A stretch of 64,000 bases of DNA from Escherichia coli (GTDB lineage Bacteria; Pseudomonadota; Gammaproteobacteria; Enterobacterales; Enterobacteriaceae). The notes beneath the pieces were generated by a model that saw nothing but the letters and a program-made list of their open reading frames with translations, made no database searches and was not told the origin of the DNA. Each line of letters opens with the position of its first letter. Within the stretch, counting starts at the first letter, position 1. The stretch is taken from assembly GCF_044324875.1 (NCBI RefSeq), contig NZ_CP172185.1, one strand, 5' to 3'. The translations under genes were made by a program, and so were the position numbers. Shown in pieces: positions 14,420-14,640 of the stretch.

Positions 14420-14640
14420 CAGGCAAAGTTGTTATTGTCGGATGCGGCGTGAACGCCTTATCCGACCTACACACAGCACTTAACTTGTAGGCCTGATAAG
14501 ACGCGGCAGCGTCGCATCAGGCAAGGCTGTTATTGTCGGATGCGGCGTAAACGCCTTATCTGACCTACACACTGCCCGAATTCGTAGGCCTGATAAGACG
14601 CGGCAGCGTCGCATCAGGCGCTGCGGTGTATATCTGATGC
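14420..14640. repeat. BIME: tandem REP (repetitive extragenic palindromic) units between pepA and holC
   Basis: Two near-identical ~110-bp units each containing GCCGGATGCGGCGTAAACGCCTTATC / GTAGGCCTGATAAGACGCG..CGTCGCATCAGGC palindromes. Confidence 0.9.

Follow-up and report, generated by a model that had tools for sequence, protein, structure and literature searches.

A variable-number BIME-2 array of Y and Z2 REPs between pepA and holC of Escherichia coli

Introduction

The spacer between pepA and holC in the Escherichia coli DNA analysed here (64,000 nucleotides of contig NZ_CP172185.1, assembly GCF_044324875.1; the window in what follows) carries a short repeated sequence, which raises the questions of what kind of element this is, how it differs between strains and what it may do, or suffer, between an aminopeptidase gene and the essential holC–valS pair. 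These questions are taken in turn below, beginning with the layout of the repeat and ending with its possible effects on the neighbouring genes.

The pepA–holC spacer and its two units

Two open reading frames on the + strand flank a spacer of 258 nt. Across this spacer, an 860-bp stretch has a 100% identical counterpart in E. coli ST648 (NZ_CP008697.1), in which RefSeq annotation names pepA, holC and valS (Table 1). The array is extragenic: pepA stops at 14413 and holC starts at 14672, and the array, its last Z2 REP included, spans 14416-14619. Its boundaries are marked by the 9-mer GCATCAGGC, the 3' arm of a Z2 REP, which recurs at 14416, 14514 and 14611 and whose first copy begins two bases past the pepA stop codon. 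Unit 1 accordingly runs from 14416 to 14513 (98 nt) and unit 2 from 14514 to 14610 (97 nt), and global alignment places identical bases in 88 of 98 columns (about 90%), with nine substitutions and one indel. Tandem Repeats Finder reported no repeat here, as expected, since a mere pair of copies with 90% identity scores too low for that program.

The first-pass annotation, made from the letters alone, had described a tandem duplicated REP/BIME unit at this place, and repeat search and alignment bear this out, giving two units, each composed of a Y+ and a Z2- REP; in the repeat search the start-to-start distances were 98 and 97 nt. The unit length of roughly 110 bp given there was too long, and the repeat begins at 14416 and not at 14420. 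Both sequence differences that it quoted between the units are present, namely GTGAACGCC at 14449-14457 against GTAAACGCC at 14547-14555 and CCGACCTAC at 14462-14470 against CTGACCTAC at 14560-14568, but its description of the units as almost identical, with a few differences, understated a divergence of ten. It is scarcely conceivable that the array is an assembly artefact or a chance similarity, given the identical 860-bp stretch in an independent complete genome, the 65 records that match at 99% identity or more and the similar arrays found across Escherichia.

Table 1. Features of the pepA–holC locus and other annotated features of the window
Feature	Coordinates	Strand	Basis and remarks
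pepA (leucyl aminopeptidase), upstream gene	12902-14413	+	503-aa ORF; RefSeq annotation of identical stretch; stop TAA 14411-14413
GCATCAGGC, isolated Z2 3' arm opening unit 1	14416-14424	+	sequence, repeat search, alignment
12-nt linker AAAGTTGTTATT before Y1; varies between alleles	14425-14436	+	sequence, unit alignment
Y-type REP 1 (Y1), GTCGGATGCGGCGTGAACGCCTTATCCGACCTAC	14437-14470	+	2 mismatches to Y consensus; hairpin -19.2 kcal/mol, z -5.2
16-nt spacer, CTAC end of Y1 to GTAG end of Z2-1; variable	14471-14486	+	sequence, unit alignment
Z2-type REP 1 (Z2-1)	14487-14522	-	0 mismatches to Z2 consensus; hairpin -21.9 kcal/mol, z -5.5; IS621 target
Rfam naRNA4 (RF02564) match over Z2-1, linker and Y2, the junction made by two units	14490-14565	-	74.7 bits
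12-nt linker AAGGCTGTTATT, Z2-1 to Y2	14523-14534	+	sequence, unit alignment
Y-type REP 2 (Y2)	14535-14568	+	alignment to unit 1 and fold; -17.0 kcal/mol, z -5.0
15-nt spacer, Y2 to Z2-2, ACACTGCCCGAATTC; stretch in which the units differ most	14569-14583	+	sequence, alignment
Z2-type REP 2 (Z2-2)	14584-14619	-	0 mismatches to Z2 consensus; hairpin -22.1 kcal/mol, z about -5; IS621 target
Weak extra (fifth) hairpin, 5' arm = 3' arm of Z2-2	14610-14641	+	-15.6 kcal/mol, z -3.0; then CATTTAAAT, no T-run
ATTTAAATCCACCACAAGAAGCCCCATAT, sole spacer part conserved across Enterobacteriaceae genera	14643-14671	+	cross-species comparison
holC (DNA polymerase III chi subunit), downstream gene	14672-15115	+	147-aa ORF; RefSeq annotation of identical stretch
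valS, after holC	15115-17970	+	ORF; RefSeq annotation of identical stretch
Intact IS621 copy	239-1514		recombinase ORF 340-1320, - strand, 326 aa
tRNA	7364-7445	-	Rfam, above gathering score
Magnesium riboswitch (Magnesium-II)	31175-31290	-	Rfam, above gathering score
STnc450 sRNA	57391-57448	+	Rfam, above gathering score
ES239 sRNA	62020-62142	-	Rfam, above gathering score

Y and Z2 repeats and the assignment to BIME-2

The REPs at the locus follow the order Y+, Z2-, Y+, Z2-, so that orientation alternates within a module that recurs at the spacing given above. Searches of the 64-kb window with the Y and Z2 consensus sequences, at up to three mismatches, returned five and four matches, respectively, and none in 100 shuffles each, and the array is therefore not a product of chance. 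Y2, with four differences from the Y consensus, lies outside that mismatch limit and was placed by its alignment to unit 1 and its fold. All four REPs form stable predicted hairpins (-17 to -22 kcal/mol, z about -5), and for the spacer taken as a whole the folding energy is -113 kcal/mol (z -6.2). In the Y stems of this locus, GTCGGAT/ATCCGAC stands where the consensus has GCCGGAT/ATCCGGC, a paired change that keeps the stem. Between Y2 and Y1, an A at 14549 replaces the G at 14451 in the tetraloop (UGAA to UAAA), and a T at 14561 replaces the C at 14463 in the stem, which turns a G-C pair into G-U; in the predicted folds, both of these differences, flagged at the first reading, keep the hairpin. 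Among 20 distinct Escherichia units, 10 of 48 stem columns are variable, whereas loops and linkers vary in 25 of their 59 columns (Fisher p = 0.023).

A further, weaker hairpin (CGCATCAG...CTGATGCG) at the downstream edge of the array is conserved in the BIME-bearing Escherichia alleles; since it and the Z2-2 hairpin both use the 3' arm of the last Z2, the two would be mutually exclusive.

The array is, with high confidence, a BIME-2, in which a Y/Z2 module occurs twice in tandem in the untranslated spacer 3' of pepA and upstream of holC–valS. It resembles other BIME-2 elements in its Y and Z2 sequence types, alternating orientation, tandem modules, extragenic site, hairpin potential and between-strain length polymorphism, and differs from them in nothing of substance, the Y stems with their paired change from the consensus being the only departure. 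Its REPs agree with the Y and Z2 REPs given for the E. coli RAYT (PMC2817692, Table 1), and Nunvar et al. equated the pair of REPs on either side of yafM, the RAYT gene of E. coli, with the Y and Z2 units of BIME-2 (PMC2817692). BIME-1, defined by an IHF-binding L motif between its units, was ruled out, as the IHF consensus WATCAANNNNTTR occurs on neither strand of 14413-14672.

The Y and Z2 REPs, themselves non-autonomous, are linked to the RAYT transposase YafM (PMC2817692), and the array shares with REPIN/RAYT systems the inverted pairs of both REP types that flank E. coli rayT (yafM). In those systems REP doublets are mobilised by a Y1 transposase; the changes in copy number at this locus are explained well enough by recombination. 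BIME-2 DNA is also reported to be strongly bound, and cleaved, by DNA gyrase, according to PMC2817692, which cites Espeli and Boccard 1997 for strong binding; at this locus the strength of such binding would depend on the number of units.

Copy number and mosaic units

With the spacer and its flanks as query, a match was found in 5,425 of 5,426 complete E. coli genomes, 4,010 of them with at least 80% of the query covered, while the coding flanks alone were found joined in one place in 5,422 genomes. Span classes were taken from an evenly spaced sample of 59 genomes among the 5,425. Three units, with a span of 955-957 bp, were present in 24 of these 59 genomes, two units (848-860 bp) in 12 and one unit (761-763 bp) in seven, K-12 derivatives included; the remaining 16 had a span of 734-735 bp, which corresponds to the BoxC allele described below. 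The first-pass annotation had suggested that copy number may vary between strains and had proposed counting units in other E. coli genomes, and the count shows discrete spacer lengths of one, two or three units. The exact allele of the window is rare, the 65 records mentioned above being the only ones to match it at 99% or more. As for K-12 itself, the MG1655 RefSeq annotation carries no REP feature at this locus; the K-12 REP between pepA and holC is presumably REP342, since REP341 sits at yjgN/valS.

In a set of one genome per species, four units were found in a genome labelled E. coli SCPM-O-B-8794, three in E. albertii and one in Escherichia sp. MOD1-EC7003, so that the array is older than E. 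coli.

Aligned units from twelve alleles proved to be mosaics of one another. The single K-12 unit has the sequence of unit 1 of the three-unit allele as far as GATAAGAC, after which its Z2 loop is that of unit 3, while the middle unit of ST131-type alleles is a chimera of units 2 and 3. Mosaics of this kind are expected where units in register undergo unequal homologous recombination or slippage, and they point to such events here. The earlier suggestion that the units are recombination substrates agrees with these mosaics, and in particular with the chimeric K-12 unit.

IS621 targets and natural insertions

Durrant et al. reported ATCAGGCCTAC as the IS621 target observed in nature; it was found at 129 of the 173 insertion sites that they mapped, the majority of which lay in REPs (PMC11208160). 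Under a definition of the target as the 11-nt ATCAGGCCTAC (or ATCGGGCCTAC) with a CT core, both Z2 REPs of the array carry the exact ATCAGGCCTAC on the - strand, at 14487-14497 and 14584-14594, and these are two of only five occurrences of the 11-mer in the 64-kb window. The other three, also on the - strand, are at 38256, 41464 and 57304.

Three of the 5,425 genomes lack joined coding flanks. In GPEC403-625, one of the three, the annotation shows a transposase of the IS621 family in the pepA–holC spacer; the element lies in the third Z2 of a three-unit allele, with GTAG on one side of the IS and AGGCCTGAT on the other, the junction falling at the CT core. A query made from the junction found a second case of IS621 at pepA–holC, in CUVET20-416. 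The allele of this strain is the two-unit allele of the window except for one base in the first Z2 loop, and it shares with the window GTAAACGCC, CTGACC and the private spacer ACACTGCCCGAATTC. Here the insertion is in the second Z2, between GTAG and AGGCCTGAT, at the site homologous to 14584-14594. The Z2 targets at pepA–holC are thus used in nature, IS621 having inserted in at least two strains, and what had been put forward at first as potential IS621-family targets can be counted among its natural ones, with the exact 11-mer and CT core in both Z2 REPs and insertions at homologous sites. In contrast to the sites in those two strains, both targets in the window are unoccupied. The supplements of PMC11208160 make no mention of pepA or holC.

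IS621 is present at 80% or more of its length in 1,635 of the 5,426 genomes, and the window itself holds an intact copy (Table 1). This copy is 99.3% identical to that of GPEC403-625, with nine mismatches, all of them coding, and identical non-coding ends, so both array targets lie about 13 kb from an apparently functional element.

The IS621 copy of the window sits outside REPs, and its flanks reconstruct a near-target, ATCGGACCTAT, which in 13 genomes sharing the arrangement at 98% identity is inside a gene annotated as a restriction endonuclease. For the first 2.4 kb of the window, these 13 other genomes match at only 98%, and NZ_CP008697.1 has other genes there.

The BoxC allele and spacer turnover across genera

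The BIME is replaced by a BoxC-type spacer in 1,401 of 5,426 E. coli genomes (about 26%). Alleles of this 735-bp class have no BIME, their 133-nt spacer containing instead a repeat whose reverse complement is CCCTCTCCCTTAGGGAGAGGGTTAGGGTGAGGGT and which matches the type A BoxC/PIT/TMECO triplex motifs of PMC4666352. An example is E. coli KGu016, in which positions 602-734 of the extracted locus correspond to 14414-14671 of the window. BoxC and BIME alleles have in common only the last 29 nt or so before holC, a segment, ATTTAAATCCACCACAAGAAGCCCCATAT, that is presumably the translation-initiation or 5' leader region of holC.

A survey of 59 Enterobacteriaceae species found a small structured repeat in the pepA–holC spacer of almost every genus. 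By a crude motif count, species-specific REP-like palindromes occur in 34 of the 59 species loci, BoxC pairs in nine (e.g. Pseudocitrobacter, Kosakonia and Phytobacter) and REP together with ERIC-like elements in six (e.g. S. enterica arizonae and C. amalonaticus), with ten loci unclassified.

A tentative and rather improbable proposal is that the spacer is a recurrent landing pad for unrelated structured repeats, with selection for a structured insulator whose unit number would be a tunable dial. Under this proposal, REPs or BIMEs, BoxC triplex motifs and ERIC-like elements would replace each other across the Enterobacteriaceae, and the division of E. coli into about 74% BIME and 26% BoxC alleles, with only the 29 nt or so before holC kept, would be one instance of such replacement. 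The BoxC allele, the cross-genus turnover of repeats and the nearby IS621 fit the known picture in which BIME-bearing spacers are polymorphic.

Possible effects on pepA and holC–valS

Considering what the array may do, the nearest analogue that has been studied is REP325, six Y-l-Z2 units between the co-oriented yjdM and yjdN. According to a 2026 preprint, REP325 stabilises the upstream mRNA and partially terminates transcription towards the downstream gene, in part through Rho; across the genome, REPs located between tandem genes are reported to favour expression of the upstream gene, the variance being large (bioRxiv 10.64898/2026.03.23.713779). According to this preprint, the effects of REPs are context-dependent, and its supplement has a terminator table in which pepA:holC:valS are listed together at a terminator downstream of valS. 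This listing suggests that transcripts cross the pepA–holC spacer, with some read-through.

By analogy with REP325, the hairpins of the array are likely to protect the 3' end of pepA mRNA and to damp read-through into holC–valS. RNA hairpins transcribed from pepA would be a barrier to 3'-to-5' decay of the mRNA upstream of them, and the ends of pepA transcripts would lie in the hairpins or be trimmed back to them; the hairpins would also partly attenuate read-through into holC–valS, in part through Rho, and more units would give stronger effects on both the pepA mRNA and the read-through. The array shares with REP325 and naRNA1-6 the same REP types, the tandem arrangement between co-oriented genes and a naRNA4 match above the gathering score, but has two units where REP325 has six, and the analogy is inexact because the Y-linker-Z2 orientation that best matches naRNA4 is opposite to pepA transcription. 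The array also has only four hairpins, and fragments of REP325 with two to four hairpins are not clearly Rho-dependent (bioRxiv 10.64898/2026.03.23.713779). As about 26% of E. coli genomes have no BIME here, no essential role can be attached to it.

A role in translation was considered separately. A REP that lies no further than about 15 nt from the stop codon reportedly causes translation to stall (Liang, Rudd and Deutscher, 2015); at this locus, such REP-stalled translation is not supported, the first stable hairpin beginning 23 nt past the pepA stop, with only a predicted long-range stem earlier.

The four strong GC-rich hairpins directly 3' of the stop codon could be taken for an intrinsic (Rho-independent) terminator of pepA and nothing else. 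No T-run follows any of them, however, a scan of 14300-14800 turned up nothing resembling a terminator on the + strand, and the supplement table places pepA:holC:valS at the terminator beyond valS (bioRxiv 10.64898/2026.03.23.713779), all of which makes this reading very unlikely.

Equally unlikely is a discrete small RNA of the naRNA4 type, which would bind HU and condense the nucleoid in the manner that Qian et al. 2015 proposed for REP325 RNAs (PMC4550694). The Rfam model RF02564 does match the junction of the two units on the - strand, above its gathering score of 59.5 bits, whereas the + strand reaches only 52.6 bits. This family is built of Y-l-Z2 units, though, and any such pair matches it, as two further matches in the window illustrate. 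Moreover, the best match runs antisense to the one direction in which transcription is evident, and a scan of 14300-14800 for promoters came back empty for both strands, giving no sign of an antisense promoter for such an RNA, nor of a holC promoter within the array. The 2026 preprint, which shares one author with the 2015 paper, also reports that compaction by REP325 or naRNA4 was not measurable (bioRxiv 10.64898/2026.03.23.713779).

It is also possible, if somewhat doubtful, that the array is selfish or neutral DNA only, a RAYT-related element that expands and contracts by recombination with no measurable effect on pepA, holC, valS or chromosome structure. The locus tolerates one to four units, a BoxC spacer in 1,401 of 5,426 genomes and even an IS621 insertion of 1.3 kb, different repeat families occupy the spacer across genera, and the preprint describes the effect of REPs on half-life as non-uniform, with large variance (bioRxiv 10.64898/2026.03.23.713779). 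Against neutrality stand the lower variation in stems than in loops and linkers, the retention in nearly every genus of a structured repeat and not an empty spacer, and the measurable effects described for REP325 as a similar array between tandem genes. Protection of the pepA 3' end with damped read-through remains the preferred reading.

Other features of the window

Further REP/BIME sites are present in the window at 10313-10348, 28292-28325, 38208-38291, 41464-41547, 47701-47782 and 57304-57314, and naRNA4 also scores above its gathering threshold on the - strand at 41467-41544 and 47701-47779. The Rfam model of the Yersinia antisense sRNA Ysr276 matches inside the pepA coding sequence (13460-13654, - strand, 184.6 bits), a match that probably reflects conservation of pepA and not a separate RNA gene. 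Other structured RNAs of the window are included in Table 1.

Significance

The array is an ordinary element of a kind already described, and REPs, BIME-2 arrays, their length polymorphism and the preference of IS621 for Z2 REPs were all established before. As a small repeat of variable number, the locus separates E. coli lineages by the presence of one, two or three units or of the BoxC allele. Since an intact IS621 lies about 13 kb from the two exact targets, its insertion ahead of the essential holC–valS is a realistic event, and IS621 has already inserted there in a strain with the same allele. The unit-number alleles would form a convenient natural series for asking whether REP count tunes the stability of the upstream mRNA and read-through into the genes downstream.
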